This document shows positions 10,583 through 33,956 of a stretch of 33,956 nucleotides of DNA, piece by piece (within the stretch, counting starts at the first letter, position 1; every line of letters starts with the position of its first letter). The position numbers were made by a program, and so were the translations under genes. The notes beneath the pieces were generated by a model. The model did not search any database. It had not been told where the DNA came from and was given only the letters and a program-made list of their open reading frames with translations. This stretch comes from an uncultured Gammaproteobacteria bacterium (GTDB lineage: Bacteria > Patescibacteriota > Patescibacteriia > Patescibacteriales > UBA12465). Where the stretch lies: contig CAYQEI010000003.1 of the NCBI GenBank assembly GCA_964416495.1, positions 1-33,956 on the forward strand. The letters are read 5' to 3'.

Positions 10583-10591
10583 AAGCGATTA

Positions 10592-12352: not shown

Positions 12353-12365
12353 CACTAATGAAATT

Positions 12366-12674
12366 TTATTCAAATAAAGGGCTGGTATTGCCGACCCGAC
12401 ATGAATTATTATTGATATTACTTCCACAAATTTTATCAATTGAGAATAGCTTAACTTGGCTAGTTAAAGCACGCATAGCATCAGCTTGCAAAATCTCAGT
12501 ATCAATTAACTGTTCCGCTGGCAGTTCCCTTCTAATCACTACTTCAGTTTTAGTTACTCCACTAGCATCGCGATAGTAATCGATAAAATCTTGACGAAAG
12601 AAAAGCAATGCTAAAGCAGCCAACAAAACAATGGCGGTAAGGGAGTAAAAGAGGCTGGCGAAGCGATTAGACAT
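12366..12674 (-). CDS. Small single-pass membrane protein of the pilMNO-pilB operon (function unknown)
   Basis: N-terminal TM helix LFYSLTAIVLLAALALLFF. C-terminal Cys pair CGSNINNNSC. Tightly packed between the pilO-like gene and pilB. Confidence 0.55.
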   Translation of the reverse strand: MSNRFASLFYSLTAIVLLAALALLFFRQDFIDYYRDASGVTKTEVVIRRELPAEQLIDTEILQADAMRALTSQVKLFSIDKICGSNINNNSCRVGNTSPLFE

Positions 12675-12696
12675 ACTAAATTAAAGTTTAAATAAA

Positions 12697-13275
12697 TTAA
12701 CTAGCTTTATAATAATAAGTTAAAAAAGTTAGCTCAAGGCTTTCCCCTTCGACCGAATAAGAAATTCCTTGAACATCAATTAAACGAGAACTTTTTTCTA
12801 AATCCTGGATGAACTTTTTCAGATTACGATAATCAAGCCCAGAAATATTGGCTACGCCTTCAATAGCGCCGATAGTAGCGCTAATGCTAGTTGGTCCCTG
12901 ATCATTTATATCTAAAGACTCTAAAATATAACCACTACGACTAGTTATTTCCTCTAACTCTCCAAATAAACTTTCTTTGACATAGTTGTTGGGCAAAACC
13001 TGATTGAAAGTATCTAGGTCAGATACTGGTATTTTACTATAGACATTATAGATAGTTTGGAGCTCTTTGAGCCTTAACTTCTGCTCTTCAAATAACTTCT
13101 CTTGGGCGCCAATATTGCTTTTAATGACCATTTTAGTCTGAGTTAATTTGGGAGAAATAATAAAAGAATAAAGTAAAATGAAAACCAAGATAGCAACAAT
13201 GAAAGAAAGTAAAGCAAAATACTCATTTAAAAATATATTTACTTCTTCTTGGCGTGTCTTTTTTTTCTCAGACAT
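12697..13275 (-). CDS. pilO: PilO-like pilus alignment protein
   Basis: Short cytoplasmic N-terminus, one TM helix, a coiled-coil (EEQKLRLKELQ), then an alpha/beta domain. Sits after the pilN-like gene. Called from architecture and position only. Confidence 0.55.
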   Translation of the reverse strand: MSEKKKTRQEEVNIFLNEYFALLSFIVAILVFILLYSFIISPKLTQTKMVIKSNIGAQEKLFEEQKLRLKELQTIYNVYSKIPVSDLDTFNQVLPNNYVKESLFGELEEITSRSGYILESLDINDQGPTSISATIGAIEGVANISGLDYRNLKKFIQDLEKSSRLIDVQGISYSVEGESLELTFLTYYYKAS

Positions 13276-13280
13276 ATAAC

Positions 13281-13970
13281 TTATTTCTTAAAAATATCTT
13301 GGTCTAAACTAAACTCAATCGAAAAAGAAACTTCTGGTGCCCGTGAAGCTAAGTTAAGGTCAGCTAAACTAGCACCCTCACTAGCTAGCTGGGCAAGCTG
13401 TTCTTGAGTCAAAGCATGACCATCAGCACTAGCAGTTGCTACTTCAACATCTTTGACAAAAGGATCATCAAGGAATTGCTTTACTTGCCAAGACACCTCA
13501 GCAAAGGAGTTAGCATGGGCAGAAAAAGCAAAATCGCTGTTGAGTTTCAAATCTAGATTAGTATACTTGACTGTACTTAAAGTATTCTTTTCTAACCAAG
13601 AAAAGAAGTTAGACCAATAAATATGATTATCTAGTAGTGGCGTAATCACTTCAGTTTTATCTTGATAGGTAAGAGCGGCCCGTGCGTCTTCACGACTTTG
13701 ATTAATATCAGCTCGCAATAATTCAGACTCTGCCTTAATTGCCTCTAGGCGCTGCTCTTCATCCTTCTGCCACCAATTCAAACCAAAATAGAGCTCAATT
13801 AGAATAATAATAAAGGTGCCGAAAATAAAAAAGAGACTAAACAGGTTTTTCTTCCAATTAAACTCCAAGCTTATCTCTTGTTTGATGAGGTCAACTTCCA
13901 AGATTTTAGGGTTTTTGAAAGCCTGGTCTGAACTCGATTTATTTTCTTTGTTTTGTTTTAGTAAACTCAT
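13281..13970 (-). CDS. pilN: PilN-like pilus alignment protein
   Basis: ~45-aa cytoplasmic N-terminus, TM helix LFSLFFIFGTFIIILIELYF, coiled-coil. Immediately downstream of pilM. Confidence 0.55.
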   Translation of the reverse strand: MSLLKQNKENKSSSDQAFKNPKILEVDLIKQEISLEFNWKKNLFSLFFIFGTFIIILIELYFGLNWWQKDEEQRLEAIKAESELLRADINQSREDARAALTYQDKTEVITPLLDNHIYWSNFFSWLEKNTLSTVKYTNLDLKLNSDFAFSAHANSFAEVSWQVKQFLDDPFVKDVEVATASADGHALTQEQLAQLASEGASLADLNLASRAPEVSFSIEFSLDQDIFKK

Positions 13971-13973
13971 AAT

Positions 13974-15032
13974 TTACTCTATTCCCCGCATCGCTAAGCC
14001 AATAGCGACTGCTAACTTAGGTCCAGCTTCTAATAAAACTGGTTTAATCTCCTGAGGATAATTAATTCGATTCCAGGGGTCTCCAATTATTACTTTAGCA
14101 TCTAATCGGAGAGAAAGATAGTCAGCTAAGTTCAATAAGAGTGAACCACCACCGGAGAGAACAATTTTTTCAATTGGATCTGGGTTCTGTGATTGATAGA
14201 AATCGCGAAGATACTTCATTTCAGTAATTATTGGCTCAATTGATTCAAGCACTAGGTGTGGTAAGTCATTTTTGTCATCAGTCTTTTCGTTAAGGGAGAA
14301 GTTTAAATCTAACTTAAACTGCTCAGCTTGACTAAAACTCATCCCCAGTACCTCAGCTAACTTCTTTGTTATTGTCGTCGAACACACTGACAAGCTCCGG
14401 TTAAGGACAGGAATACTTTCTTTGATGATTGATAAGTCAGTACTATTAGCGCCAATCTCTACTATCATTATAGATGACTTATCATTGCCAATCAAACTCC
14501 TTACTAAAGAAAAAGTCTCAGTTTCTAGGCTAGCTAAGGACAAATTAGCTTTTTTAAATATCTCAATATATTTTTTGACTAATTTCTTTGGCGAGCCAGT
14601 TAAGAAGACTTTGAGATCGCCAGCATTTTTTATCTTTCCTTTCTCATCAGGGATAATCTTCCAATCAAGTATCATCTCATCTAAAGGTAAAGGAATAACC
14701 TTTTTAGCTTCTTCACTAATAGTACTAGCTAGCATCTTCTTGTCACCAACGCTAACATTAATAATAGAGGAAAAAACTGAAAAAGTAGGCAAAGAAACAG
14801 TGGCGCGACGCGACTGAATACCAGCCTCATTAATCACTTTACTAACTGCCCTCGCTAAATAGGAAGTATCCTCAATTTTATTGAAGTTAAGCTCAGCTAC
14901 ATTTTCGCTAAAAGCATAATTAGATAAAAAAATCTTCTTCCCCTTTTTCTTCAATTCCACCATTTTCAAAGAAGAGTCGCCGATGTCTATTCCCAAAAAA
15001 AATTTATCCTTGCTAAAAGAAAATAAGGCCAT
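13974..15032 (-). CDS. pilM: Type IV pilus assembly protein PilM (actin-like ATPase fold)
   Basis: FLGIDIGDSSLKMVELKKKG phosphate-1 motif, IVEIGANSTDLSI, LSGGGSLLLNLADYL. ~350 aa. Confidence 0.85.
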   Translation of the reverse strand: MALFSFSKDKFFLGIDIGDSSLKMVELKKKGKKIFLSNYAFSENVAELNFNKIEDTSYLARAVSKVINEAGIQSRRATVSLPTFSVFSSIINVSVGDKKMLASTISEEAKKVIPLPLDEMILDWKIIPDEKGKIKNAGDLKVFLTGSPKKLVKKYIEIFKKANLSLASLETETFSLVRSLIGNDKSSIMIVEIGANSTDLSIIKESIPVLNRSLSVCSTTITKKLAEVLGMSFSQAEQFKLDLNFSLNEKTDDKNDLPHLVLESIEPIITEMKYLRDFYQSQNPDPIEKIVLSGGGSLLLNLADYLSLRLDAKVIIGDPWNRINYPQEIKPVLLEAGPKLAVAIGLAMRGIE

Positions 15033-21620: not shown

Positions 21621-22250
21621 TTATCTCTCTAACCAGAAAGCACTATCGACTAGCCAATTATTATTTTGCTTAACCATACTTATCTCTATATCTTGCTGAT
21701 AGGACTGGGCATCAAAATTAGCACTTTCTTCTACCCGCATGGTTTTGAGTGTAACTTTGGCTGAGTTAGAGTCAAAGCTAGAAACATTACTTTGAATTAC
21801 TTTAGTAGTGATGCCATAGTAGCTCTCGGTAGCTGGTTGACTGGCTCTTAGCTCACTGACATAATTTTGTGCCCAAGTCTTCATCTTGCTGGTCATCATG
21901 ATCATGATGTCAGAAAAGTTACTGTAATTGGAATAATTAGAATAGGAGCCAAAGCGCTCAACAAAGGCACTAGCTAATTTAGAGACGTCTTCTTGATTAG
22001 TTTGATGAGGCGCTTCTTTGCTAATATCATAATTACTTTCATCACTAGGCTTGTTACTGGTACTAATATTTGGCTCAGGCAAAATTCCACCACTACCATC
22101 AGGTAAGCGACCATCACCTATCTCTTGTCCATCACCCAAATCACCTGGCTCAGGAACTGGTTTTTGGATGAAAAACATATAAATTGCCAAAACTAAAATT
22201 ACTAAACCTAGTAAAATTATGAGTAAAGCTAATATCCTTCTATTTTTCAT
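21621..22250 (-). CDS. N-terminally anchored extracytoplasmic protein; candidate VirB8-position (NTF2-like?) component
   Basis: TM helix ILALLIILLGLVILVLAIYMFFI, Pro/Gly/Asp linker with GDGRLP, ~130-aa globular domain ending NNNWLVDSAFW. Directly downstream of VirB4. The fold assignment is inference only. Confidence 0.4.
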   Translation of the reverse strand: MKNRRILALLIILLGLVILVLAIYMFFIQKPVPEPGDLGDGQEIGDGRLPDGSGGILPEPNISTSNKPSDESNYDISKEAPHQTNQEDVSKLASAFVERFGSYSNYSNYSNFSDIMIMMTSKMKTWAQNYVSELRASQPATESYYGITTKVIQSNVSSFDSNSAKVTLKTMRVEESANFDAQSYQQDIEISMVKQNNNWLVDSAFWLER

Positions 22251-22279: not shown

Positions 22280-24175
22280 TTATTCCACTGCTTCGCCTTC
22301 TCTGAGGCTAGCTTCAAATTCTCGCTTAGCTTCCTCAATTTCAAGCAATTGGCGGGGGTCAGAAGTGATGAGCTGGTCTTCGGTATAAGAAGCGACTACT
22401 TTCATCGCCACATGTTTATTGCCGGCAAAGAAAATTCCTTCACCAACCCCACATTCCAGTAACAGATAGCGCTCTCCTTCGGTTAGGAGGAAGGTCTTTT
22501 GAACTAAATCAATTGCTGCTGCGGATTGTTTGAGTAAAATCTGCATTGCTGAATTAGTTACTATTGCTTGACCATAGGGTGAGTGCAGGAAGTCGTTAAC
22601 ATCTTGAGTAATAGTCGTTACCCCTAAATAATATTTACGACAGCGCTTTACTAGAGCAAAAATAAACTTAGCACTATCTTCGTGTTGCATCATCCACCAA
22701 GCTTCATCAATAACCAATACCCTCTTTTTCATCTGGCTTCTAACAATATTCCAAATATAGTTAATGATGGTATAGATAGCAATTGGTCTGAGCTCATCTT
22801 CTAGGTCTCTAACTGAGAAACAAACTAGCTGATTATTCATCTCAACATTAGTTGGCGAATTAATTAAACCAGCAAAAGTGCCTTTGGTGTACTTACGCAA
22901 ACGCTGAGCTAGCTCATTACCACCTTCCATTCCTTCCAAAACTTGCTCCAAATCTGCCATCACTGGTGGCTCAATCTGTGATAGATCGGTATCTGGAGTA
23001 ATGTCTTTTTTGGCATAGGTCTCTAGTAAAGCCCTGTCCATAATTGAATCTTCATCATAGGTCATATTTCCTATCATCAAGCGGATTAGGCCCTTGAGGG
23101 TGATAACCGCACTACGTATTATATCTTTGGGACGAGATTCACCGCCAACTGAACTAGGCAGATCAAAGGGATTAATTTTATTATCACTAGATAATGAGAT
23201 ATTGATATAGGTACCACCAACTGCTTCTGCTAAATACTTGTATTCATACTCCGGGTCTATCACTATCACATCTGTCCCCAGCATCAATGACCGGAGAATT
23301 TCAAGCTTAATTGCATAGCTTTTACCAGCACCTGAAGTAGCAAAAACAACTGAGTTAGCGTTAAAGAGGGTGAAGCGATCAAATAAAATGAGGCTATTGT
23401 TATGGCGATTAATGCCATAGAGTACCCCACGGTCACTACTTAGCTCACTAGAAATAAAAGGAAAAGATGAGGCAATCGGAGACGAATTCATATTGAAAGC
23501 AATGTAGAGCTCATCATTACCTAAAGGCATAGTTGAGTTAAAGCCCTGCTCAGCTTGATAATAGACTCGCTTTGAATAAACTAAACGAGAGCCAAACAGA
23601 TCCTCAACTTGGTCTGAAATCCGATTGAGGTCCTCTAAATTATCGGCATAGAGAGTGATGTAGAGAGCAAACTGGAAGAACTTCTCTATCCCTTGGGTAA
23701 GGGCATCTCGCAGGTATTCAATATCCCGCAAGGCTGTTTCTCTAATTGGATCACGCGCAGCTCCTTTTTCAGCATCAGCGATGATTTGAGCCTCTAAATT
23801 ACCCACTCTATTTTTTAGTTGTTTTAAGATAATCGCACTTGAGACGGGATAGAAGAACATGGAAATATCAAAGGTAAGGTTGAGATTAATTATCGGAGCA
23901 AACCAGCCAACTGATATATAACGCGGATAATTAATTACAAAGACTGTCCGTAAAAAACTATTACCTAAGCGAAGGTAATTAGCCTCTACTTTAATACTAG
24001 CAGGGGCAATAATATCTTTTACCGATAGTATTCCACGACGTAAGGCTAATTCTTCCTCAATTATTTCTCGAGTCATCTCAGGGTCAGCTTCAACATAATC
24101 TTGGGCTGGTCTAGCGCCACCCACCCGGCTGGATAAATCTATTCTATTTTTTTCTTCTTTTTTGAAATCAATCAT
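22280..24175 (-). CDS. virB4: VirB4/TraE/ConE-family type IV secretion ATPase (core and ATPase domains)
   Basis: Walker A ATSGAGKSY (nt 23318-23341), Walker B VLVIDEAWWMM, upstream region DIIAPASIKVEANYLRLGNSFLRTVFVINYPRYISVGW typical of Gram-positive VirB4 homologs. Confidence 0.85.
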   Translation of the reverse strand: MIDFKKEEKNRIDLSSRVGGARPAQDYVEADPEMTREIIEEELALRRGILSVKDIIAPASIKVEANYLRLGNSFLRTVFVINYPRYISVGWFAPIINLNLTFDISMFFYPVSSAIILKQLKNRVGNLEAQIIADAEKGAARDPIRETALRDIEYLRDALTQGIEKFFQFALYITLYADNLEDLNRISDQVEDLFGSRLVYSKRVYYQAEQGFNSTMPLGNDELYIAFNMNSSPIASSFPFISSELSSDRGVLYGINRHNNSLILFDRFTLFNANSVVFATSGAGKSYAIKLEILRSLMLGTDVIVIDPEYEYKYLAEAVGGTYINISLSSDNKINPFDLPSSVGGESRPKDIIRSAVITLKGLIRLMIGNMTYDEDSIMDRALLETYAKKDITPDTDLSQIEPPVMADLEQVLEGMEGGNELAQRLRKYTKGTFAGLINSPTNVEMNNQLVCFSVRDLEDELRPIAIYTIINYIWNIVRSQMKKRVLVIDEAWWMMQHEDSAKFIFALVKRCRKYYLGVTTITQDVNDFLHSPYGQAIVTNSAMQILLKQSAAAIDLVQKTFLLTEGERYLLLECGVGEGIFFAGNKHVAMKVVASYTEDQLITSDPRQLLEIEEAKREFEASLREGEAVE

Positions 24176-24178
24176 AAA

Positions 24179-24865
24179 TTAAATTATATTATCACCAACT
24201 CGTAACTGCTCAATATCTACTAGAGGTTGGTTCTTGGCCGTTTCTGGGTTATAGGTTTTGTAATAGAGCTCAATTAAACTTTGAGTATCAAGACGGGCTA
24301 CTGAAACTCCCATTGACTCTAGTCCACCAATGACGCTACCTAAACGACGGTTGAGCATTTCTTGATAGCGATTAAAAGTCTTATCTTTCAGCTTTATCAC
24401 CGTAGCTGGCCGCATTGCTTCTTTAACTAAACTAAAGAAGTTCTTTTGTTTGTCAGTTAAAGGGTCATAGGGGACGATAACGAAGAAATATTTGGTCATA
24501 ATCCGACCAATAGAAGTTAGCTCTTTAATATACTGGATGTAATCACTAGTTTGGAGTTTGAGTAATTTATTAGTTTGCTCCTTTTCTTTTTCTTGCAAGA
24601 AGTTAAGGTAATTATCAATGTTTAGTTCCCGAGATTGGATGACGATTTGTAGTGAGAAGCTAAGGTTATTAAGGAAGCTAACATAAGAGCTAATTACGGC
24701 GTTTTGCTCTTCTTCACTTTTTAGGGCAAAGTTAATGCTAGAGACCATTAAAACTGCTCGTAAAGTTCCGTCTTTGAGAATGACAGTATCTTCTTTAATC
24801 TCAGCAATATCTAAGTACTGCTGAGTTGAAACTGATCCTTTACCTTTTGCTTGTCCTTTAGCCAT
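24179..24865 (-). CDS. Soluble protein resembling the extreme N-terminal domain of Tn916 Orf16/ConE-type VirB4; same frame as the VirB4 ORF
   Basis: STQQYLDIAEIKEDTVILKDGTLRAVLMVSSINFALKSEEEQNAVISSYVSFLNNL...IVIQSRELNID follows the pattern I recall for VirB4 N-termini. It ends with a single TAA (24179-24181), then TTT, then ATG 24175 in the same frame. Confidence 0.5.
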   Translation of the reverse strand: MAKGQAKGKGSVSTQQYLDIAEIKEDTVILKDGTLRAVLMVSSINFALKSEEEQNAVISSYVSFLNNLSFSLQIVIQSRELNIDNYLNFLQEKEKEQTNKLLKLQTSDYIQYIKELTSIGRIMTKYFFVIVPYDPLTDKQKNFFSLVKEAMRPATVIKLKDKTFNRYQEMLNRRLGSVIGGLESMGVSVARLDTQSLIELYYKTYNPETAKNQPLVDIEQLRVGDNII

Positions 24866-24867
24866 AT

Positions 24868-25290
24868 TTATTCACCTTTATATTTACCTTTTGTATCAAC
24901 AATCAAGGCCACCTCAGCTAAACGCGATTGTTGATAGTATTCTTTTTTCTCGATCTCAGTCCCAGTTTTAATTGGGGCAATAACTGCCTCCTGAGCCTCT
25001 TTTATTTCCGAGCCATGATCCCAAACACGTAAGTTAGCTCGTCTTAGTGTCTGGAGGATGTTTAGGATGAAGAAATGAAAGGGGCGACCATTGATTTTTA
25101 CGAAAGCAAACAAAACTGCAATTATCAAAATTATTACTCCAATTATTAAAAACGAAGTAAAGTCTAATAAGCGATAGCAGAGAGCAATTGAAAGGGCAGC
25201 TACCAAAAGTATCACGAATTGGCGGGTGGTAACCGGCCCAATGATCTTGCTCTCAACATCAATAAATTGTGGTACGGTAAACTGCTGCAT
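24868..25290 (-). CDS. PrgI-family / VirB3-like small membrane protein
   Basis: MQQFTVPQFIDVESKIIGPVTTRQFVILLVAALSIAL plus a second TM helix is the PrgI-type N-terminus. Positioned upstream of VirB4, as in Gram-positive T4SSs. Confidence 0.65.
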   Translation of the reverse strand: MQQFTVPQFIDVESKIIGPVTTRQFVILLVAALSIALCYRLLDFTSFLIIGVIILIIAVLFAFVKINGRPFHFFILNILQTLRRANLRVWDHGSEIKEAQEAVIAPIKTGTEIEKKEYYQQSRLAEVALIVDTKGKYKGE

Positions 25291-25291
25291 A

Positions 25292-26770
25292 TTAAAAAGT
25301 TAAACGACTATTTAAGTCTATAATAGCCTCTATTTCCGCTAAACTCAAATTGGTCTCAGACTCTCCTTCACTGATTGCTTCCTTAACTGTCTTCCCTTTA
25401 GCCATTGCTCTTTGCACATTAGCTAAATAGAGACGATTAACTGGACTTTTCTTCCAAGCGCCAATTGCTTCTATCATCTTACCATAGCCACTTTTTTCTA
25501 ATAACTTTATTTTCTGAAATATCTTAGTTGTTCTCTCTGCCGGAGTCTTACCTAAACGCCTGAAATTAATAATATCAAGGTAAAGCAACTCTTCAATCGG
25601 GCCCATTACTTTTGGACTTGGCTTAACATCTTGAATCTTTTGCCGACGACTATCGCCTGGTCGCGGTGCTGGACTCATTCGTTTTGGTGCTGGCGCCACT
25701 GGCTCTGCTTTAACAATATTTTCTCGGCTCGGTTTAGTTGCAACTTCTGTTTTCTTTTCTTCCTTTACAGGAGCTGGGCTAACTGCCTGAGAACCTAATT
25801 CTTGAGCAAATTGAATCGAACCTTTAGTCGCTTTATCAGATCCAGCAAAGAAACCTCTAAACAAACCCCTTTTCTCTGGCGGAGTGATAGTTTGCTCTGG
25901 TGGTCTAACAGCCTTCTTAGTTTGAGCTGACTCTTCCCCCATACTTGGCTCCGGTTTCACTAGCTCTGGTTCTTTAATCGGAGTAGAGCTCTCTGTCTTA
26001 GCTGGGACTAGCTCTTCCTCTGTTAGCTGAGCCTCAAGGGCTGATAACTCTTCTTCAATAGCAACTGCCTCTGGCTTTAGCCCCTCCTTGCTAGCCTCAG
26101 TCTCAACTGGTGCTGTCAGTGGAGTTAATGTCGGTGAGCTAATTTTTTTAGTTTCTCCCGATGCTAGAGCTTGCTTGAGATCATAGCCTGGCTCAATCCT
26201 TAACTCTGGCTTTAGACTTGGGCTTTGCGTTGATTGAGTTTGTTTCTGTTGATGATATTGATAACGATCACTCACTTTGAAAACTCGATCTATTTCCTCA
26301 GCTGATAATTCTAAACCACCCTTATCAATACTTTTAGCTAAAGCCTCTCTGGTATCTATTTTTCGTCTGACTCCTTTAATATAGGTTAGTAGTAGGCGGC
26401 GTAAACGCTCAACCAATTCAGTGCTAGCTAAGCTTAACCCCGCTTCTTTAATTACAGCCTCAATATTGTCAGTTGGGTCACCTTTTTTCGGGCTTAGACC
26501 TACATAATCTGCAACTTTAGAGAAGAATTTAGTTTTAAGGTCAGTGGCTAAACGCTGGGCTTTCTCTGCCCCTAAGCCTAACTCACTAATCAAAACTGAC
26601 TCAAGATCTGAGGCAGCTAAGCTCTTTATCATCACCCGCATGATTATCATCGCCAAATCAACTTGATAATCAGTCTCAAGTTGAGTCAATAAAGCCATCG
26701 CCTCAGGTGATGAGACCTTAGCTTTAATTTCAGTGGGTAGAGTCTTAAATTTTTGTAAATAATCAAACAT
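25292..26770 (-). CDS. Hypothetical soluble protein: N-terminal helical LPxxI module, long Pro/Glu/Lys-rich disordered centre, small helical C-terminal domain
   Basis: No TM helix or signal peptide. N-terminus MFDYLQKFKTLPTEIKAKVSSPEAMALL.... Low-complexity centre at about nt 25615-26260. Translationally coupled to the PrgI-like gene (1-nt gap). Confidence 0.6.
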   Translation of the reverse strand: MFDYLQKFKTLPTEIKAKVSSPEAMALLTQLETDYQVDLAMIIMRVMIKSLAASDLESVLISELGLGAEKAQRLATDLKTKFFSKVADYVGLSPKKGDPTDNIEAVIKEAGLSLASTELVERLRRLLLTYIKGVRRKIDTREALAKSIDKGGLELSAEEIDRVFKVSDRYQYHQQKQTQSTQSPSLKPELRIEPGYDLKQALASGETKKISSPTLTPLTAPVETEASKEGLKPEAVAIEEELSALEAQLTEEELVPAKTESSTPIKEPELVKPEPSMGEESAQTKKAVRPPEQTITPPEKRGLFRGFFAGSDKATKGSIQFAQELGSQAVSPAPVKEEKKTEVATKPSRENIVKAEPVAPAPKRMSPAPRPGDSRRQKIQDVKPSPKVMGPIEELLYLDIINFRRLGKTPAERTTKIFQKIKLLEKSGYGKMIEAIGAWKKSPVNRLYLANVQRAMAKGKTVKEAISEGESETNLSLAEIEAIIDLNSRLTF

Positions 26771-26813
26771 TAGCAGGTCTCAATTTAAGTAAAATATCCT
26801 ATCTGTAATTCTA

Positions 26814-26822
26814 ATTTTATCA
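26814..26822 (-). promoter_or_regulatory. Candidate extended -10 box TGATAAAAT for the 25292..26770-to-VirB4 transcription unit
   Basis: Reverse complement of attttatca, 43 nt upstream of ATG 26770 in the only sizeable spacer of the locus. Confidence 0.35.
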
Positions 26823-26885
26823 TATTCTTGATAAAAATGAAAAATAGATCATTCTTTATTCTCTAATAAATCAATCCTTCCCCTC

Positions 26886-26926
26886 TAAAGATAAAAGGAA
26901 AAAGCTAAACTAGATAGCTCTTCCTT
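26886..26926 (-). terminator. Candidate intrinsic terminator after 26949..28253
   Basis: Minus strand AAGGAAgAGCTA-loop-TAGCTttTTCCTT followed by TTATCTTT. The stem is interrupted. Confidence 0.4.
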
Positions 26927-26948
26927 AAGTAAGTTCGTACCAATCAAA

Positions 26949-28253
26949 TTAATTCTTTTTCTCCTTTTCTAAGCGTCTAATTTCCTGAGCAATCGTTTTA
27001 TACTCTAAAGATTCGACTGAGTAATCTCGTTGAATTAGCTTTAACTCCTCAACTAAACTACTTCTCTTCTCCGCTGGCTTAAACTCCACTTTAGCTTCTT
27101 GCTTTACCGGCTCTTGTCTCTTTGCTACCGGTTTGACTGGCTCTGTCACTGGATTAACTTGGCTTAAGGGTTTTTGAATTGGTGCCTCTGACCTTGCCGG
27201 TACGGGTGGCTTTGGCGCTGGTGGGGGAGTGCTGGCAACTGGGGCCTGACTAGCTCCTTGCTTAGCTTGGAAAGGGGAGGAAAGGACTTCAAAGTTCTCC
27301 GGTACTTTATTAGCACCAGTGGTAAGATAAAAATCAAGTCGATTGATATTATTATTAAATTTCAAAATGCGTAAAGCCAAAACTCTATCTGCTTCACTAA
27401 GTTTAGCCAAAGTTTTATTGGAAATAAATTCAGCAATATTTAGGTCCGAGCCCTCTAAACCATAGTTTTTGATAAAGCTCCTCAATAAGTTCTCAACTGT
27501 ACTGGCAATCTCTTGCCCACCAGAGACTAATTTTTCTTTAGAAAATTGTTCTTTATTATTTAAAAGCGTAGTCGCAATAGTGTCATGGAATTCTTGGTCT
27601 TTAATCCAAAGTAAAACAAAATGATAATTGAAATCATCAAGGTCCTCTTGTTGAGTTGAGTTAAGTAGTGCTATCAAACCCTCTTTTACTATAGTATTTA
27701 GCTCTTTTTTCTTTTCAGCTAACTCGTTAGCCTCATCTTCTTGAGAAAAGATTTCATCTAAATCTAGCTCTAGTTCAGTGTCTGCTAAAACATCAGTAAT
27801 CGAAGAAAATAATTCTTCTGCCTCCTTCTCCGCTTGGGCTTCGCCAGCTAAATAATCTTGCTCTTTTGCAATTGCTTCTTTTTGCTCAGCAATCACAGCA
27901 GCGAAACGACTTAAATCAACATTATGTTGCTTGAGATAATTACTAGCCTGACCGGAAAGCCAATCATCCATTATCAATAAACGAGCGCCAACTAATTGAA
28001 TTGCTAAACTAAGAGCTTTATCAGGAGCGGTTTGTAGTAAATCAGTAATCCTTTTTTCAAAACCAGTTATTTCAACTTCTTTTACCATCGCTCCTGCCAC
28101 TAAGTTAGCTAAAGGACCAATTAAATTACGATCCACATTAGCTACGTTAAATAGCTCTAAATTAATGTCTACTCCTTTAAGGGAGAAAGCATAGGAGCGG
28201 ATTGGCTCAGGCAGACTATTTAACTTGTTGTAGAGGTCTTTGATTTCTAACAT
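26949..28253 (-). CDS. Hypothetical soluble protein, paralogous in architecture to 25292..26770 (helical LPxxI N-module, acidic helical middle, Pro-rich tract, short helical C-terminus)
   Basis: MLEIKDLYNKLNSLPEPIRSYAFS.... Pro-rich tract APVASTPPPAPKPPVPARSEAPIQKP at about nt 27053-27263. No TM helix. Confidence 0.6.
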   Translation of the reverse strand: MLEIKDLYNKLNSLPEPIRSYAFSLKGVDINLELFNVANVDRNLIGPLANLVAGAMVKEVEITGFEKRITDLLQTAPDKALSLAIQLVGARLLIMDDWLSGQASNYLKQHNVDLSRFAAVIAEQKEAIAKEQDYLAGEAQAEKEAEELFSSITDVLADTELELDLDEIFSQEDEANELAEKKKELNTIVKEGLIALLNSTQQEDLDDFNYHFVLLWIKDQEFHDTIATTLLNNKEQFSKEKLVSGGQEIASTVENLLRSFIKNYGLEGSDLNIAEFISNKTLAKLSEADRVLALRILKFNNNINRLDFYLTTGANKVPENFEVLSSPFQAKQGASQAPVASTPPPAPKPPVPARSEAPIQKPLSQVNPVTEPVKPVAKRQEPVKQEAKVEFKPAEKRSSLVEELKLIQRDYSVESLEYKTIAQEIRRLEKEKKN

Positions 28254-28262
28254 AATAACTTA

Positions 28263-30731
28263 TTAATAATTTGCTAAAGCTGGGTTAGCATTAATTGCAG
28301 TTACTTTCCTTGTAAATGCACTCCGCTCACTAGCAGTCCAATTTGGATCAACTCCTAAACTCAAAATTACATCACGAATTTCTCTCACTAATTCTGGATT
28401 AGCACCATCTATCATCATGCTGTTTAATTGTCCTGCACTAATATTCTTCGCTACCATGTCTCGTAATACTGGTTGAGAAATATACGTGTCTTTATCCATT
28501 CTGTTTAAGTCTTTAGCTCTGGCCTGATTAATGTAAAGCTTGATGTTACTCTCCATTGCTCCAGGATCATGACTGAAAGCCTCTCCCCAGTCACCATAGG
28601 AATTAGCTATGATACTGGCATACCTGTTAGCCTGAGCACTATTTCCAGCTGTCTGCTCATCATCACGTCTACTCTCAAGTGCTGAGCGGTAGTTATTGTG
28701 TGCCGCCTGAGGTCTACCATCAAGAGTCTTGTTCATAACTGCCTCAAAATTATTACCAAATCTATTTTCCATTACTGACAAGAAGCCTTGTTGAGCAAAA
28801 GTTTCATCACTGATCTTGCCCAAATCAATCTTGCCTGTACGTAGAGCTTTCTCAAAGTCATCTCGGCCTACCTCAGTATCAAAATCATAATTGAAATGAG
28901 GTTGCTTAGCATCTATCTCCGCTTTTAGTTTTGCTCTAGATAATGGATTACGGTTAAAGACCTGCTTGAGCTCATCAACTTCATCTTTAGTCCTGAAAGC
29001 GGCCTTGCTAGCTTTGATTAAGCCTAGAGCCATCTTGTCTACAGTTGAAGTAGCGGCACTACTAAGCTTGCGATCAATTTCACCTCTACTCAAATCCATT
29101 GCTGTGTATTTAGCTTTAGCTTCTTCAACCTTCTTTTCATGTTCAGCTAAATTCTTAGCCTTATTCCCGCGATAATTAGATTGATAGGAATCATAAGTCG
29201 CTGCCCCCCAAGCACTCATCTTCTTTACTTCATTGCCATCGGCATCTCTAATAGCAGCGCCAAAACCTGTTCTTGTGCCAGAAGCATCCCTGGTAACCTC
29301 TTTGATAACCTTGCCATCTAAACCATATTCCCTACCCTGATAAGTTGTAGTGGCGGTGGAATCACCTTTAGTTGCCTCAAAAAGATCACGTTGTAGATTC
29401 TTTATACCAGCCTCTTCTTCACTCTTAGGAGCACCAAGGGAAACTCGATCTTTTACTCCCTGATAGAAATCTTTTACTTGACCAGCATGAGTACCAAATA
29501 AACCTTTATCAGAATAAATTGCTTCCCCTCCAGCCCTAACTATCTGTTTATCAATAGTATGGCCAAGAGTTCGATCAATTGAGCCAGCAACATGGCCGGC
29601 GCCCCTGCCTACTGCCTTGCCACCCTGCTTTGCCTTTGCTAAAGCAAAACCGCCAACAGCACCACCAGCTACTAAGCCAGCTGACTTTAGCTTACCCGAT
29701 GCCTTGCCCAGAGCTTGACCTGCAGCCCCACCAACTTCCTGCGCTATCTTCATACCACCAATTAACATGGCAATAGAAATGATAAACTTCATCATTGTTT
29801 CACTAGTAGTGTAGCCTTCCATTTGTTGCTCACCCTCAAGGTCTACTCCATCAGTGCTATTGACCTCATCAATCTTGAAGGCAGATAAGGTCTTATCTTC
29901 ATTAGTGCTAGGATTGCCTAAAGTCGCAAAAGATAACCAAACGAAGAACGCTAAAATCGGCCCAATAACTAAATTCTTAGTAAACTCTGTCCACCATTTT
30001 TTGGAGTAATTTTCTCCACCAGGAAAAGAGGCAAGTAGGTAAGCTAAAGGTGAGAGCACTACATACACCCAAATCATCACTAAACGCATAACTAGCATTA
30101 CCACCATGCTCAAAACAGTCACTAAGGCAATTAAAGCATAGAGTAAAGCTAGGAAATAGGCAGCTAGGACTCCCCAGCCACTGACTTCAGTACCAGTAAA
30201 ATCTTTCATTTTCTGCCATTCCTGGATCCCCAACATTTGAGTGAGGCTACCAGCGCCAATTTTGGAAAAGCTACCAACGAATGTCAACATTACGACTTGG
30301 GCGACATCTATTAATAGGCCACAAATTGTTTTGGAGAAGTTAATCAAAATTGCCATTAACACTAGACGAGGTAGCCATTTTTTGTAATTGTATTTCTCTT
30401 GTTGCAAGATTGTCGCTAAAGCAATAACTAAAAGAATAACGATAAAGAACATATTGGCGACATCGCGTACTACTCGCCAACCATAGGCTATTACTGGGGC
30501 ATTGGTAAAATCATTGTAGTTGACAACAGCCATAAAAATCCCCATCACCTTCGCTAAAATCCAGCCAATAATGGAGACTAGGGTTTTAACTAAACCGCCA
30601 ACAAGAATATGGGCCCAGCCTGCTTTTGCAAAAGCTATCTGTGGTAATGCTAAAAACAAAGTAGCCCCTACTACTGTCACCCAAATAATCGTTTTTTTCT
30701 GCTTACCGATTTGTTTTAGTATCTTTTTCAT
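28263..30731 (-). CDS. VirB6/TrbL/PrgH-like polytopic membrane protein with ~420-aa hydrophilic C-terminal domain of unknown function
   Basis: Signal-like N-terminus ...LALPQIAFAKAGW, then at least 6 hydrophobic helices (aa ~40-340, e.g. MFFIVILLVIALATIL, LVLMAILINFSKTICGLLIDVAQVVML), a Gly/Ala-rich segment, then a charged soluble domain. Confidence 0.65.
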   Translation of the reverse strand: MKKILKQIGKQKKTIIWVTVVGATLFLALPQIAFAKAGWAHILVGGLVKTLVSIIGWILAKVMGIFMAVVNYNDFTNAPVIAYGWRVVRDVANMFFIVILLVIALATILQQEKYNYKKWLPRLVLMAILINFSKTICGLLIDVAQVVMLTFVGSFSKIGAGSLTQMLGIQEWQKMKDFTGTEVSGWGVLAAYFLALLYALIALVTVLSMVVMLVMRLVMIWVYVVLSPLAYLLASFPGGENYSKKWWTEFTKNLVIGPILAFFVWLSFATLGNPSTNEDKTLSAFKIDEVNSTDGVDLEGEQQMEGYTTSETMMKFIISIAMLIGGMKIAQEVGGAAGQALGKASGKLKSAGLVAGGAVGGFALAKAKQGGKAVGRGAGHVAGSIDRTLGHTIDKQIVRAGGEAIYSDKGLFGTHAGQVKDFYQGVKDRVSLGAPKSEEEAGIKNLQRDLFEATKGDSTATTTYQGREYGLDGKVIKEVTRDASGTRTGFGAAIRDADGNEVKKMSAWGAATYDSYQSNYRGNKAKNLAEHEKKVEEAKAKYTAMDLSRGEIDRKLSSAATSTVDKMALGLIKASKAAFRTKDEVDELKQVFNRNPLSRAKLKAEIDAKQPHFNYDFDTEVGRDDFEKALRTGKIDLGKISDETFAQQGFLSVMENRFGNNFEAVMNKTLDGRPQAAHNNYRSALESRRDDEQTAGNSAQANRYASIIANSYGDWGEAFSHDPGAMESNIKLYINQARAKDLNRMDKDTYISQPVLRDMVAKNISAGQLNSMMIDGANPELVREIRDVILSLGVDPNWTASERSAFTRKVTAINANPALANY

Positions 30732-30742
30732 AACTTATTTAA

Positions 30743-31231
30743 TTATGACCCTCGAATAAATCTGATAATTGTTCCAGCTGGGCTACTCCAAATAAAGCCC
30801 ATGATTCCTTGGATTATTTCCATTGCCTTTATCGCAATATCTACCATTTTTAGCACTGCTCCAGCAATAGCCATGAGAAATATCAACTGAATTAGACAAC
30901 CTAGAGCTAGACAACCTACCGCCATTTTCTTAATTAATTCACCCTGCCCTCCAACAAACCTATCCTTATGCTTTAGGGCTAAACCAATCGCCCTTAGCCA
31001 AGGAATTTTGGTCTTTTTACCTAACTTATCAACAACATCAACAGCTAAATCTGCCTTTTTTTCCGTTGCTTGCTTTTCCTGGCTACGAGCCTGCAAGACT
31101 GCTTGGTGTAAACTTTCAGGCTCTTGCTCTAAGTAGCTAAACTCCTCCCTTTTGCTTTCCCTTAACTCGCCTGCCCGATCTGAGCTATGAGCACCTCGTC
31201 CTGGTTCTAAAGTGCTATCATCTTGCGCCAT
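30743..31231 (-). CDS. Small membrane protein (charged ~100-aa N-terminus, two C-terminal TM helices)
   Basis: MAVGCLALGCLIQLIFLMAIAGAVL and IIQGIMGFIWSSPAGTII hydrophobic segments. 11-nt gap to the VirB6-like gene. Confidence 0.5.
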   Translation of the reverse strand: MAQDDSTLEPGRGAHSSDRAGELRESKREEFSYLEQEPESLHQAVLQARSQEKQATEKKADLAVDVVDKLGKKTKIPWLRAIGLALKHKDRFVGGQGELIKKMAVGCLALGCLIQLIFLMAIAGAVLKMVDIAIKAMEIIQGIMGFIWSSPAGTIIRFIRGS

Positions 31232-31257
31232 AATCGTTTGTTTATCTTTATCTGTTA

Positions 31258-33956
31258 CTAGAGACTTGCACTTGCCTCAACGAATCCACCCCAATTATCC
31301 CAAATCTGAATTGTGATATTTACAGTACCTGTTTTATTAACATAATAATGATTGAACTTATGAATCATGCTATCTGAGCTAATGCCTGGCTGTGGCTTGT
31401 GATCTACTCCAGTAATTGCCTGACTACTTTCATCGCCCCAATCAATATGAATCATATTCAAAGGTTGCCTATCTTTATCAACCGTAGTGTTAAAGGAAAG
31501 AGCATATACTCCTGAGCCAAAGTTAGGTAAGTCCTGTCCTTTTTTAGCTCTGGCATCGCTAATCCTTGTTAGGGTAATGTTACTTATCTGAGGCCCACTA
31601 GTAGCTGCCATAGTTATAGTAAAGTTACCAGTTGGATCAGGAACGTAACGTCCGTTCCGATAAACAAAGGCTCCGTATGAAGTCCTGAAAATATTACCCA
31701 AAGCATTTTGAGCATCCTCTGGGTATTTCGGAGCTACACTCCAAAGTGGAATACAGGTACCAAAGCCACCATCAGAACAAGATTTGTTATTGATAATCTG
31801 ATATGACTCATCGCCATTTTCTGGGTCTGGATAATAAATACAGAAAGCATTAGTGTTGAGTTCGCAAACACCAACATTGGCGCAAGAATTACCTGAACAA
31901 GCGTAAGGACGACCGGCATAAACAGCTCTTGGGTCTTTCTCATAATACTGGTTACGTAGATAAATTGCTCCACTGTTAACAATATCGTAGTTGGCGTCAA
32001 AGCTAGCAGCGCCATAAGGGGCGTCTAATGCTAGACGGCCATAGCCTTTGAGATTATTGTTAGGGTTCATAAATGGTGGCGTATCATAGGAGTATTCTGG
32101 ATCAGCAGTTACTCCAACCCGACTAGTCCAGGCTTGATTCTCACCAGCGCTAGATACTAATTGGACAAAGTTGCTACAAGAGAAGTTAAAGAGCTTATCC
32201 CTATCTTCTCTATCTGCTGAGATATATTGAAGCCCTTGTTCGTCATAAACTCGATAATCAGGATTATAGACCCTAATAGCTGGGTCAGCATTACCCTGCT
32301 CATCAATTGGTTCACATTTCTCACCGCTACCAGCACAACCTTTAACTGACTCATAATTCATCTTCCCATCATAATAGAACCAGGCATCGCGGTAGAAGGT
32401 CATGTCACAAGAAGAAGCGGTAGCGTTAGCAAAGGCTCCTTGAGCTGTAGTTCTAGCACCGACCCCGAAGACAAGTCCGTCGTCAACGTTTCTCTTATTG
32501 TCATTGGGGACACAGTAGACTTCAGCTGTATTTGAGTCTTCTTGGTTAAGTACTAAGATAGATCGATAGTCACCACTTGTTCCACAATAACTTTCATGGA
32601 GATTTTTATTTGATGTCAACTCTCGACAAGAGCCAGTTGAGGTTCTAATTGGGAGGTTAAATGCATCAGCAACTGATCCGCTAAGTTGCCAATAGCCTGG
32701 TGGCCTTACCGCCTCTGGATCTTCTGGCTCTGGTGGTTCAATGTAGACGAAGGCATTAGATCGGCGCGATATTAATTTCGTGCTTAACTTCCTGACAAAT
32801 TTAATGTTAGAATTAATGTTAGTACAATAGCTCAGCCCACTTCTTTCACTATAACCTAAAGAGGAGCCAGCAAAAGATGAGCTAATCCTATCTGCTGGAT
32901 ACCAAGTAATACAGTTATTTGGATTATCGCGGTCGTACTCAAGACAATAGCCCTCTAAGCCAGTAGTAATAACATTCTTATTATAATCACTACACTCAAA
33001 GCTACCAATATTTGGATATAGGCGACAATCACGTACCGCAAACTCATTTACTCCTTTTTTCAGTACTGGTTCAATTCTAATGTCGTCAAAATAGACTTCT
33101 CCACTAGCACCGCCACTAGAGCTTAGGTAAAGAGAAACTGCGCTATAGTCTGAATTACCAGAAATTATTTTTTCGGTGCCAAAAGGAATTATTTTTCTTT
33201 CCCAACCATGATTAGCACTGGCATACGCCACTACACCGTTAGTGGCATTTTTAGCTTTAATCTCTATCTTCGCTTGAGCTCCACCTGACTTTTCTGTATT
33301 TACTAAGAAGCTCAAGTAATAGTCATGACCAGCCGAAAGGTTAAAGAACTGACCATCGGCTTGAGGGGAAATAATTAAGCCATTAGGTACCTTCAAGAAA
33401 CTCTTTCCTGAAGCTGGGTAATCTACCGGCGACCCTTCTGGCTCACGGACAACAAAGTCGGTAAATGAATAAGAAGCACAAGGTAGGCCACCCGAAGTAC
33501 AAGATATGGCTGGAACTAAATCCTCAAAGTCAAAGTGAGCGTTAGAGTTTAGTCCAACCTCTTGCATCTTAGAAATATTATCTAAACCAGGAATGTAATA
33601 ACCAGTAGCATTAGCTGGGTTATATGTATACTCAGGGTCAACAAAATTAACACATTCACCAAACTCATCAACTGCATTACATTCTTTAAGGTCATAGCAA
33701 ACTTTCTGCCCAGTCTCTTCATCAATGGCATAGGTAGCACAGGATAGCCACATTCCACAAGTTCTATCTGGTCTTACCTTAATTAACTGATTAGTAGCAC
33801 AAGAACCTGGGACTCCGTCATCACAAGTGACCGGTGAAGAGCCTTGACTACTGCGATAAGGGTCAAAGCCTTGGCCAGCTAAATTGGCATAACCACTAGC
33901 TCCAGTAAATGATCTTTCGTTAAACAAGACACAGCCTTGATTGAAATCTAAACGAC
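31258..33956 (-). CDS. Large Cys-rich extracellular protein, C-terminal ~899 aa (N-terminus beyond window end), with jelly-roll/CBM-like and C-terminal PKD-like segments
   Basis: The track start 33927 is a TTG, but the frame remains open to 33956 (...RLDFNQGCV upstream). About 50 Cys residues. CBM-like stretch YYLSFLVNTEKSGGAQAKIEIKA...GEVYFDDIRIEPV. PKD-like stretch IHIDWGDESSQ...HKFNHYY...GTVNITIQIWDNWG. Confidence 0.75.
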   Translation of the reverse strand, partial: RLDFNQGCVLFNERSFTGASGYANLAGQGFDPYRSSQGSSPVTCDDGVPGSCATNQLIKVRPDRTCGMWLSCATYAIDEETGQKVCYDLKECNAVDEFGECVNFVDPEYTYNPANATGYYIPGLDNISKMQEVGLNSNAHFDFEDLVPAISCTSGGLPCASYSFTDFVVREPEGSPVDYPASGKSFLKVPNGLIISPQADGQFFNLSAGHDYYLSFLVNTEKSGGAQAKIEIKAKNATNGVVAYASANHGWERKIIPFGTEKIISGNSDYSAVSLYLSSSGGASGEVYFDDIRIEPVLKKGVNEFAVRDCRLYPNIGSFECSDYNKNVITTGLEGYCLEYDRDNPNNCITWYPADRISSSFAGSSLGYSERSGLSYCTNINSNIKFVRKLSTKLISRRSNAFVYIEPPEPEDPEAVRPPGYWQLSGSVADAFNLPIRTSTGSCRELTSNKNLHESYCGTSGDYRSILVLNQEDSNTAEVYCVPNDNKRNVDDGLVFGVGARTTAQGAFANATASSCDMTFYRDAWFYYDGKMNYESVKGCAGSGEKCEPIDEQGNADPAIRVYNPDYRVYDEQGLQYISADREDRDKLFNFSCSNFVQLVSSAGENQAWTSRVGVTADPEYSYDTPPFMNPNNNLKGYGRLALDAPYGAASFDANYDIVNSGAIYLRNQYYEKDPRAVYAGRPYACSGNSCANVGVCELNTNAFCIYYPDPENGDESYQIINNKSCSDGGFGTCIPLWSVAPKYPEDAQNALGNIFRTSYGAFVYRNGRYVPDPTGNFTITMAATSGPQISNITLTRISDARAKKGQDLPNFGSGVYALSFNTTVDKDRQPLNMIHIDWGDESSQAITGVDHKPQPGISSDSMIHKFNHYYVNKTGTVNITIQIWDNWGGFVEASASL

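Follow-up and report, generated by a model that had tools for sequence, protein, structure and literature searches.

A VirB4-type T4SS ATPase probably encoded by two adjacent genes in a Patescibacteria genome

Introduction

An in-frame stop codon lying between two halves of a protein invites annotation as a pseudogene, a frameshift or readthrough site, or an assembly error. Such a situation arises in the stretch of DNA analysed here (the window; 33,956 nucleotides of contig CAYQEI010000003.1), where two open reading frames of 228 and 631 amino acids (ORF228 and ORF631) share a frame on the minus strand and are separated by a single stop and a single sense codon. The original prediction described this as a VirB4 split by one TAA, and offered four explanations: a genuine two-subunit VirB4, a recent nonsense mutation or pseudogenisation, stop-codon readthrough, or a sequencing error. 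The sequence confirms the geometry. Across the junction the minus strand reads GTT GGT GAT AAT ATA ATT TAA TTT ATG ATT GAT TTC AAA AAA, translated as V G D N I I, stop, F M I D F K K, with the TAA at 24181-24179, the TTT at 24178-24176 and the ATG of ORF631 at 24175-24173, leaving a spacer of 3 nt. Is this one broken gene, or two intact ones?

We find it very probable that ORF228 and ORF631 are separate, functional, co-transcribed genes that jointly encode one VirB4-type T4SS ATPase. ORF228, a homologue of TrsD/TraD proteins, would supply the opening ~200 residues of the N-terminal domain (NTD) of VirB4, and ORF631 the remainder of the NTD together with the P-loop ATPase domain. The break would fall in a flexible linker between two NTD subdomains, and the two polypeptides would associate non-covalently to rebuild the canonical VirB4 NTD. 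Translation of ORF631 would probably follow that of ORF228 through close coupling or re-initiation, as for the operon's other closely spaced genes. The only Shine-Dalgarno sequence found for ORF631 is a distant GGTGA at -21; since hardly any gene of the window carries a canonical one, its absence here is uninformative.

The features of the locus are as follows.

21621..22250, minus strand: ORF209, N-terminally membrane-anchored protein (from the ORF list)
22280..24175, minus strand: ORF631, VirB4-type T4SS ATPase without the first NTD subdomain, 631 aa (from profile matches)
22697..22714, minus strand: Walker B-like motif VIDEAW, ORF631 residues 488-493 (within the 4ag5/TrwK ATPase-domain match)
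23318..23332, minus strand: Walker A motif GAGKS, ORF631 residues 282-286 (within the P-loop_TraG/AAA_10 match)
24173..24181, minus strand: ORF228 stop, spacer and ORF631 start, TAA-TTT-ATG (read from the sequence)
24179..24865, minus strand: ORF228, TrsD/TraD-type protein ('TraC-like', PF26593), 228 aa (from profile matches)
24868..25290, minus strand: ORF140, PrgI-family (VirB3-like) small membrane protein (Pfam PF12666)
25292..33927, minus strand: ORF492, ORF434, ORF822, ORF162 and ORF889, co-directional upstream genes (from the ORF list)

Two proteins cover complementary parts of VirB4

ORF631 carries a VirB4-type P-loop ATPase domain with both Walker motifs. It exceeds the cut-off of the NCBIfam model for CD1110-family VirB4 (NF045971; E 1.2e-105, 354 bits against a cut-off of 325), matches P-loop_TraG (PF19044, E 4e-28) and AAA_10 in Pfam, and aligns with the VirB4 C-terminal domain of PDB 4ag5 (E 1.2e-44) and with residues 445-740 of TrwK. 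Three regions can be distinguished along the protein: a low-confidence linker or tail (residues ~1-48), the second part of the NTD (~49-260) and the P-loop ATPase domain (~245-604). A complete NTD of ~440 residues is not found within this single polypeptide.

The missing portion corresponds to ORF228. On NF045971 the two ORFs cover positions 1-155 (ORF228, E 7.4e-5) and 183-733 (ORF631) of 752, and on NF045975 (VirB4_plasma) positions 100-249 (ORF228, E 1.2e-10) and 292-893 (ORF631) of 894, so that coverage is complementary and does not overlap on either model. The Pfam model TraC_F_IV is likewise matched at 120-180 and 274-372 of 375 by the two ORFs, both weakly. ORF631 alone therefore falls short of the whole VirB4 profile, and ORF228 matches the N-terminal parts, as the original prediction had supposed for the 228-aa product. 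The model that it suggested for this comparison, PF03135 (CagE_TrbE_VirB), matched neither ORF at E <= 1; useful matches came from NCBIfam NF045971, NF045975 and NF041427, and from Pfam PF26593.

ORF228 itself matches the TrsD/TraD model NF041427 with E 1.8e-10 and 41 bits. This is far under the curated cut-off of 200 bits; judged by its profile matches, ORF228 therefore appears clearly homologous to staphylococcal TrsD, but at a distance too great for an equivalog. A profile of its own family (A1) recovered Staphylococcus aureus TrsD with a probability of 91% (hhalign, E 9e-7). PF26593 is the precomputed annotation of a protein identical to ORF228, and was not returned for ORF228 by our local Pfam scan. 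Homologues number 5525, with lengths of 220-231 aa throughout the best 120 of these, and among the best 150 representative clusters of ORF228-like proteins 148 are standalone and two are fused.

Natural fusions join the same two parts in one chain. At least 117 clusters of proteins of ~780-805 aa combine PF26593 with P-loop_TraG, and their source names include Candidatus Colwellbacteria. In one of them (P0265) the parts are connected by a long P/A-rich linker. In a profile built from the fused proteins together with the two window proteins joined end to end, the ATPase domain begins at position 448, compared with residue 446 in TrwK. The NTD thus reaches the ~446 residues of its TrwK counterpart only if the TrsD part is included.

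Structural modelling is consistent with this arrangement. An AlphaFold2 model of concatenated ORF228 and ORF631 reached a pLDDT of 75 and a pTM of 0.62, with low confidence at residues 214-276. Its best PDB matches in Foldseek were to full-length R388 TrwK/VirB4 (E 6e-28, TM 0.59/0.62), and the R388 TrwK chains as a whole gave E 6e-28 to 1e-18 and TM 0.5-0.6. Alignments span 859-940 columns and take in the 859-residue query from end to end; the rmsd is 8-12 A, and the modelled construct is an artificial fusion. The predicted structure of the pair would accordingly be equivalent in fold to a full-length VirB4. Modelled alone, ORF228 gave an unusable result (pLDDT 41) from a shallow alignment of 46 sequences that are 75-82% identical. 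A profile of 78 diverse TrsD-like proteins found no solved VirB4 among PDB sequences; its sole match there was a chance reductase (E 1.5).

Taken together, complementary profile coverage, natural fusions and the end-to-end TrwK fold match support the reading of ORF228 as the N-terminal piece of VirB4 and of ORF631 as the rest; ORF228 would be the opening ~200 residues of the NTD in detached form.

It could instead be argued that ORF228, as a paralogue or mimic of the N-terminus of VirB4, has an accessory role of its own, and that ORF631 needs no completion, being a self-sufficient short VirB4. The solved C-terminal domain of Thermoanaerobacter VirB4 shows that the ATPase domain can fold alone, and some ORF228 homologues carry long additional low-complexity tails, both of which would suit such independence. 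However, coverage of the models is complementary and not redundant, with ORF631 lacking the first ~180 positions of the full-length VirB4 models of monoderms. The natural fusions also keep the order of TrsD followed by ATPase, and the NTD length points the same way. Further, ORF228 does not resemble the NTD part of ORF631 (hhalign probability 1.5%), so it is not a duplicate of that part, and the comparison also speaks against a redundant paralogue. We consider an independent accessory role improbable.

The order of predicted secondary-structure elements is similar in ORF228 and the NTD part of ORF631. This had prompted the idea of an internal duplication, which the same hhalign comparison does not support.

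The split is conserved across related genomes

The junction was compared across 80 related genome loci (60-82% identity); relatives are titled Falkowbacteria or Patescibacteria. All 80 are split, with an ORF of ~226 aa followed by one of ~633 aa, which answers the proposal in the original prediction that orthologous loci be compared for fusion and for the place of the stop. The gap from stop to ATG ranges from -4 to +89 nt, with a median of 8.5. Relative to the upstream stop, the downstream ATG is in frame in 19 loci, in +1 in 23 and in +2 in 38. The upstream stop is TAA in 66 loci, TAG in eight and TGA in six.

Programmed readthrough of the TAA, giving a fused VirB4 of 860 aa at least as a minor isoform, is the next possibility. 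The spacing of the two ORFs would permit it, since only TAA-TTT stands between them in frame, and fused proteins are functional in Colwellbacteria. Yet the in-frame arrangement (19/80) is not enriched over the one third expected. Five relatives have overlapping ATGA junctions, and several of the in-frame spacers hold a second stop. ORF631 starts from a conserved ATG of its own and its N-terminus is conserved too, a recoding signal was not observed, and the relatives do not share the conserved in-frame arrangement and stop context of a recoding site. TAA, the commonest stop among the relatives, is also generally the least leaky stop codon. As a conserved mechanism readthrough does not stand, and we regard it as very improbable here.

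A recent nonsense mutation, by which a continuous virB4 was broken and the locus became, or is becoming, a pseudogene, is less probable still. The shared frame, with one stop and one codon between the ORFs, is what such a mutation would leave, and fused versions do exist in another lineage of Patescibacteria. Against this, the split is found in every relative down to 60% identity, and the gaps, frames and stop codons vary. With synonymous sites at saturation, the proteins remain 62-92% identical to those of relatives, with pN/pS of 0.18 for ORF228 and 0.14 for ORF631 (dN 0.13-0.31 and 0.06-0.18, respectively). By these substitution patterns, both genes are under strong purifying selection. The N-terminus of the downstream protein is itself conserved among relatives as M-I-[DN]-F-[NSK]-K, and a staphylococcal plasmid system is divided at the same position.

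An error of sequencing or assembly in a single contig, as the source of the TAA, has only the suspicious geometry in its favour and a probability close to nil. Both the 228-aa protein and the junction TAA TTT ATG are identical across 22 contigs, produced by at least 10 independent runs and assemblers and drawn from both Logan and ENA, and every relative is split.

A genuine two-subunit VirB4 is consequently the sole survivor of the four options in the original prediction. Since mutation, sequencing error and, as a conserved mechanism, readthrough are all refuted, the emphasis on one in-frame TAA is misleading; this genome happens to have a 3-nt intergenic spacer, and the shared frame and single stop are coincidental results of it.

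Gene neighbourhood

ORF228 is placed between a PrgI-family gene and the short VirB4, with gaps of 2 nt and 3 nt. The PrgI-family gene, ORF140, lies immediately upstream and matches PF12666 above its cut-off (E 2.9e-8, 34.6 bits; cut-off 27). A gene of this family also precedes the TrsD-VirB4 pair in the relatives. Neighbouring genes of the operon further upstream are spaced just as closely, 1 nt and 2 nt apart.

Directly downstream of ORF631, after a gap of 29 nt, lies ORF209. Scans against Pfam and NCBIfam profiles found no significant family match for it. The same 209-aa gene follows VirB4 in every contig of sufficient length, its position is conserved in close relatives, and ORF209 is possibly a T4SS accessory component. 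The five co-directional genes upstream (ORF492, ORF434, ORF822, ORF162 and ORF889) have no Pfam matches; ORF822 has a faint match, under the cut-off, to NF046089 (VirB6-like/CD3337-EF1877; E 1.3e-3). These five genes and the VirB4 pair are probably parts of a single T4SS gene cluster. No relaxase or pilin family was matched by any of the 19 larger ORFs scanned.

The wider surroundings are chromosomal and include RadA, ThrRS and the type IV pilus genes PilB, PilC and PilM. The locus thus has virB4 adjoining prgI/virB3 and trsD in a chromosomal context, the configuration of the MPF_FATA-derived chromosomal T4SS of Patescibacteria.

Comparison with known systems

A VirB4 made of two polypeptides is genuine, ancient and already known from the literature. 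In the passages of Quinonero-Coronel et al. 2025 (PMC12102498) drawn on here, TrsD is remotely homologous to the N-terminal part of VirB4 and is the most abundant T4SS component of Patescibacteria, with 2272 homologues, 1664 of them adjoining virB4. The same passages assign it no function, and cite Wang et al. 2023 for its place among the essential genes of Ca. Southlakia epibionticum ML1. The literature reports the Patescibacteria T4SS to be essential for epibiotic growth. The present locus agrees with these chromosomal systems in taxonomic group, in the order PrgI/VirB3-like, TrsD, VirB4 and in its housekeeping context, and TrsD was recognised there with the same kind of profile as ORF228. 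Measured against those passages of PMC12102498, it shows no substantive difference and represents a further instance. The same passages make no mention of TrsD and the short VirB4 as complementary halves, or of the Colwellbacteria fusions.

The fitting annotation for the pair is a TrsD-like protein plus VirB4. If it were called a pseudogene, a readthrough site or an assembly error, a secretion ATPase that is intact and probably essential would be lost by mistake from the annotation of a Patescibacteria genome. Complementary coverage, the pGO1-type split site and the Colwellbacteria fusions together indicate that TrsD, of 'function unknown' in the literature, is the detached first subdomain of VirB4. 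This suggests a testable hypothesis about what TrsD does in the T4SS. In R388, the VirB4 NTD serves in dimerisation and in embedding in the membrane, and it makes contacts with VirB3/VirB8 (PMC12857230 for these contacts).

TrsD may have some independence from VirB4, given that its gene is not near virB4 in Gracilibacteria according to the passages used from PMC12102498. We speculate, as an unlikely extension, that free TrsD is functionally meaningful and regulates assembly of the essential Patescibacteria T4SS. It would then set the stoichiometry or timing of the docking of the ATPase hexamer to PrgI/VirB3 and the membrane, and lineages would have switched between split (Falkowbacteria, pGO1-type plasmids) and fused (Colwellbacteria) forms.

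The reading of two genes for one VirB4 extends to staphylococcal plasmids. The order PrgI (VirB3-like), TrsD, VirB4 is ancient, and common to thousands of Patescibacteria and to staphylococcal plasmids of the pGO1/pSK41 type. In S. aureus pNTUH_3874 (locus L081), a small membrane protein is followed by trsD (219 aa) and, after a 25-nt gap, a VirB4-like ATPase of 666 aa. The split site is shared, with residue 37 of ORF631 aligning with residue 23 of the 666-aa protein, although the two ATPases are only ~25% identical. ORF140 has no significant BLASTP similarity to the 121-aa protein in the staphylococcal TrsC position. The pGO1/pSK41-type systems (MPF_FATA subclass; TrsD/TraD with TrsE/TraE) are plasmid-borne and conjugative and have a relaxase, whereas the window locus is chromosomal.

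Canonical VirB4 proteins, including R388 TrwK (PDB 7o41/8rtd) and the CD1110- and Mbov_0397-family proteins of monoderms, are single polypeptides, unlike the pair described here. Domain order is alike in R388 TrwK and the window pair, and sequence similarity is confined to the ATPase domain. Two 600-aa VirB4 proteins from the fused Colwellbacteria clade (P0289 and P0385) were considered as recent secondary splits and rejected, as 100-N scaffold gaps lie inside the fused gene. The fusions of Colwellbacteria and related Parcubacteria (P0236 among them) are ~48% identical to the concatenated window pair and, as at the window locus, have PrgI directly upstream. The Colwellbacteria fusion differs in that one ORF of ~790 aa encodes both parts, the linker is short and the ~45-residue N-terminal tail of ORF631 is lacking; its locus adjoins rnpA/yidC/dnaA.

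The stop between TrsD and VirB4

The VirB4 of this T4SS is split. The division is ancient and conserved, and has been described before as TrsD plus VirB4. Here it involves ORF228, encoding a small TrsD-like protein, and ORF631, encoding a VirB4-type ATPase:

24179..24865 (-): ORF228, 228 aa (ORF list)
24181-24179 (-): stop codon TAA (sequence reading)
24178-24176 (-): codon TTT (sequence reading)
24175-24173 (-): codon ATG (sequence reading)
22280..24175 (-): ORF631, 631 aa (ORF list)

The minus strand across 24200-24140 reads ...GTT GGT GAT AAT ATA ATT TAA TTT ATG ATT GAT TTC AAA AAA.... Both the sequence and the ORF list thus bear out the original observation that the two ORFs share a frame, with one stop and one sense codon between them. 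Operon neighbours are equally tight in the ORF list, with gaps of 1 nt between ORF492 and ORF140 and 2 nt between ORF140 and ORF228.

Neither an error nor a recent mutation explains the stop. A protein identical to that of ORF228 is carried by 22 contigs, and in 10/10 loci, from ten different runs/assemblies, the TAA TTT ATG junction is followed by the same 631-aa ORF, so that errors of sequencing or assembly are ruled out. Among 5.8 billion proteins searched, ORF228 has 5525 homologues; the top 120 (76-84% identity) are all 220-231 aa long. Scanning GTDB representative genomes yielded 80 loci (60-82% identity; titles mostly Falkowbacteria or Patescibacteria), and in all 80 a ~226-aa ORF precedes a VirB4 ORF (median 633 aa) that starts M-I-[DN]-F-[NSK]-K. 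Nearly all comparisons of these relatives with the window show saturation at synonymous sites, while dN is 0.13-0.31 for ORF228 and 0.06-0.18 for ORF631, with median pN/pS of 0.18 and 0.14, respectively. These values point to strong purifying selection on both genes over deep divergence, so that neither gene decay nor a nonsense mutation of recent date can account for the split.

Readthrough of the in-frame TAA would join the two products, yet this geometry is not conserved. Among the 80 relatives, the stop-to-ATG distance lies between -4 (an ATGA overlap) and +89 nt (median 8.5), the ORFs are in frame in only 19 (+1 in 23, +2 in 38), and the upstream stop is TAA in 66, TAG in eight and TGA in six. 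Such variability excludes readthrough as a conserved mechanism and makes the window's in-frame arrangement a coincidence; the in-frame TAA has no special significance. The main value of these results is that they prevent mis-annotation as a pseudogene or as readthrough.

Two halves of one VirB4

The reading of VirB4 as split is nevertheless right. Four independent lines of evidence identify ORF228 and ORF631 as two halves of one VirB4: complementary profile coverage, natural fusions, the length of the N-terminal domain (NTD), and a model of the concatenated pair.

First, the two ORFs cover full-length VirB4 profiles in a complementary manner, without overlap. ORF631 matches NCBIfam NF045971 (CD1110-family VirB4) at 354 bits (cut-off 325), with the match limited to profile positions 183-733/752, and covers positions 292-893/894 of NF045975. 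It contains Pfam P-loop_TraG and AAA_10, has a Walker A motif (GAGKS) at residue 282, and is similar to 4ag5, a solved C-terminal domain of VirB4 (E 1.2e-44), and to residues 445-740 of TrwK, the VirB4 of R388. ORF228 matches N-terminal parts of the same models that are absent from ORF631, namely positions 1-155 of NF045971 (E 7.4e-5) and 100-249 of NF045975 (E 1.2e-10), with a weak match to positions 4-68 of Agrobacterium-type VirB4. Weak matches to Pfam TraC_F_IV are colinear across the stop (120-180 in ORF228, 274-372 in ORF631). ORF228 also matches NF041427, the model of the TrsD/TraD family (E 1.8e-10), with a score of 41 bits that is far under the 200-bit cut-off. PF26593 ('TraC-like') is the precomputed annotation of an identical protein and was not returned for ORF228 by a local Pfam scan at E <= 1, a discrepancy that probably reflects a difference in library version. 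ORF228 does not duplicate the portion of the NTD that ORF631 retains (probability 1.5% by hhalign).

Second, two long natural fusions occur among the best 150 representative clusters, P0236 (797 aa) and P0265 (898 aa). In both, a TrsD-like N-terminus precedes the ...IAPASVE..NYLK.G..F.KTLFV..YPRY... region, with which the conserved portion of ORF631 opens. With P0236 as query, at least 117 more clusters were retrieved (~780-805 aa, 59-90% identity), all with PF26593 and P-loop_TraG, from sources including Candidatus Colwellbacteria and Parcubacteria. Two 600-aa exceptions within this clade are artefacts caused by 100-N scaffold gaps. In the fused ~790-aa clade (P0236, P0271-P0389; loci L092-L094), PrgI is adjacent and rnpA/yidC/dnaA are close by.

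Third, in a profile built from the fused proteins and the concatenated window pair, position 448 marks the start of the ATPase domain, which is aligned with TrwK from residue 446. Without the TrsD part, the NTD would therefore fall short of its canonical length.

Fourth, an AlphaFold2 model of concatenated ORF228 and ORF631, with the fused proteins as alignment, has a mean pLDDT of 75 and a pTM of 0.62, with the ORF228 part mostly at 80-95. In the PDB, it is matched best by full-length chains of R388 TrwK/VirB4 (E 6e-28 to 1e-18, TM 0.5-0.62), and the 859-940 alignment columns for a query of 859 residues mean that the alignment extends from end to end. A stretch of low confidence, residues 214-276, corresponds to the C-terminal tail of ORF228 and the first ~48 residues of ORF631. 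The break lies in what seems to be a flexible linker between subdomains; in P0265, this position is taken by a P/A-rich linker of ~100 residues. Some TrsD homologues (P0133, P0146, P0225, P0265) carry long low-complexity P/A/Q-rich extensions, C- or N-terminal, and in one fused protein such a stretch serves as linker.

Precedent in known systems

A comparable arrangement exists in the Staphylococcus aureus plasmid pNTUH_3874, where genes for a CagC-family protein and a 121-aa protein are followed by trsD (219 aa, annotated 'TrsD/TraD family conjugative transfer protein') and then, 25 nt further on, by the gene for a 666-aa DUF87/VirB4-like ATPase. This TrsD is matched by the profile of the ORF228 family with 91% probability (E 9e-7). 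ORF631 aligns from residue 37 with the staphylococcal ATPase from residue 23 (E 9e-44), which places the split at the same position in the two systems.

According to Quinonero-Coronel et al. 2025 (PMC12102498), TrsD occurs, without assigned function, in the pGO1 subclass of MPF_FATA, and the VirB4 clade of Patescibacteria is nested within MPF_FATA. The same source reports TrsD as the most abundant component of Patescibacteria T4SS (2272 homologues, 1664 of them associated with virB4) and lists a homologue as essential in Ca. Southlakia epibionticum ML1. Since the arrangement is described there, the window's pair is not new but an ordinary member. A secondary value of our results is as evidence for TrsD being the first subdomain of VirB4 in detached form, given the complementary coverage, the shared split site in the pGO1-type system and the Colwellbacteria fusions.

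Proposed mechanism

In R388 VirB4, protomers dimerise through their NTDs, which are also embedded in the membrane and make contact with VirB3 and VirB8 (PMC12857230). By analogy, ORF228 would most likely bind the NTD remainder of ORF631 non-covalently and help dock the ATPase to the membrane, perhaps via PrgI/VirB3; the upstream gene, ORF140, encodes a PrgI-family (VirB3-like) protein (Pfam). Since some lineages have the split form and others the fused one, either state is viable.

Translation of ORF631 is probably coupled to termination of ORF228, the spacer being 3 nt here and an ATGA overlap in some relatives. No specific initiation signal can be named, because canonical Shine-Dalgarno sites are generally absent from the window's genes. 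Of the 29 larger ORFs, hardly any has a GGAGG-type site within 20 nt of its start; their leaders are A/T-rich.

Genomic context

The window is a piece of chromosome from a Patescibacteria genome of low GC content (39%), and no tRNA genes were found in it. Other features include:

21621-22250 (-): 209-aa protein directly downstream of VirB4, with a hydrophobic anchor at its N-terminus and a stretch rich in S/N/Y
13974-15032 (-): PilM
10592-12439 (-): PilB (T2SSE + MshEN)
9377-10582 (-): PilC (T2SSF)
Directly downstream of the T4SS cluster: RadA
Elsewhere in the window: oxidoreductase-like ORF, ThrRS, ComF-like phosphoribosyltransferase, FemAB

The 209-aa protein had no family match in Pfam and NCBIfam-type profile scans, and its gene is present in every near-identical contig that extends far enough. 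Upstream of PrgI (25292-33927, -), five co-directional ORFs of 492, 434, 822, 162 and 889 aa lack Pfam matches, ORF822 giving only a faint match (E 1.3e-3) to the CD3337/EF1877 'mobilome membrane protein' model; these may be lineage-specific T4SS components. The type IV pilus set (9377-15032, -), with three unassigned small ORFs among PilC/PilB/PilM, lies ~7 kb from the T4SS genes.

Many of the 80 relatives' records (L001-L080) are titled 'uncultured Gammaproteobacteria bacterium' despite a Patescibacteria-type locus, with L073 titled 'Nanoarchaeota archaeon' and L052 'Bacillota bacterium'; these oddly titled records look like mislabelled or contaminated MAGs.
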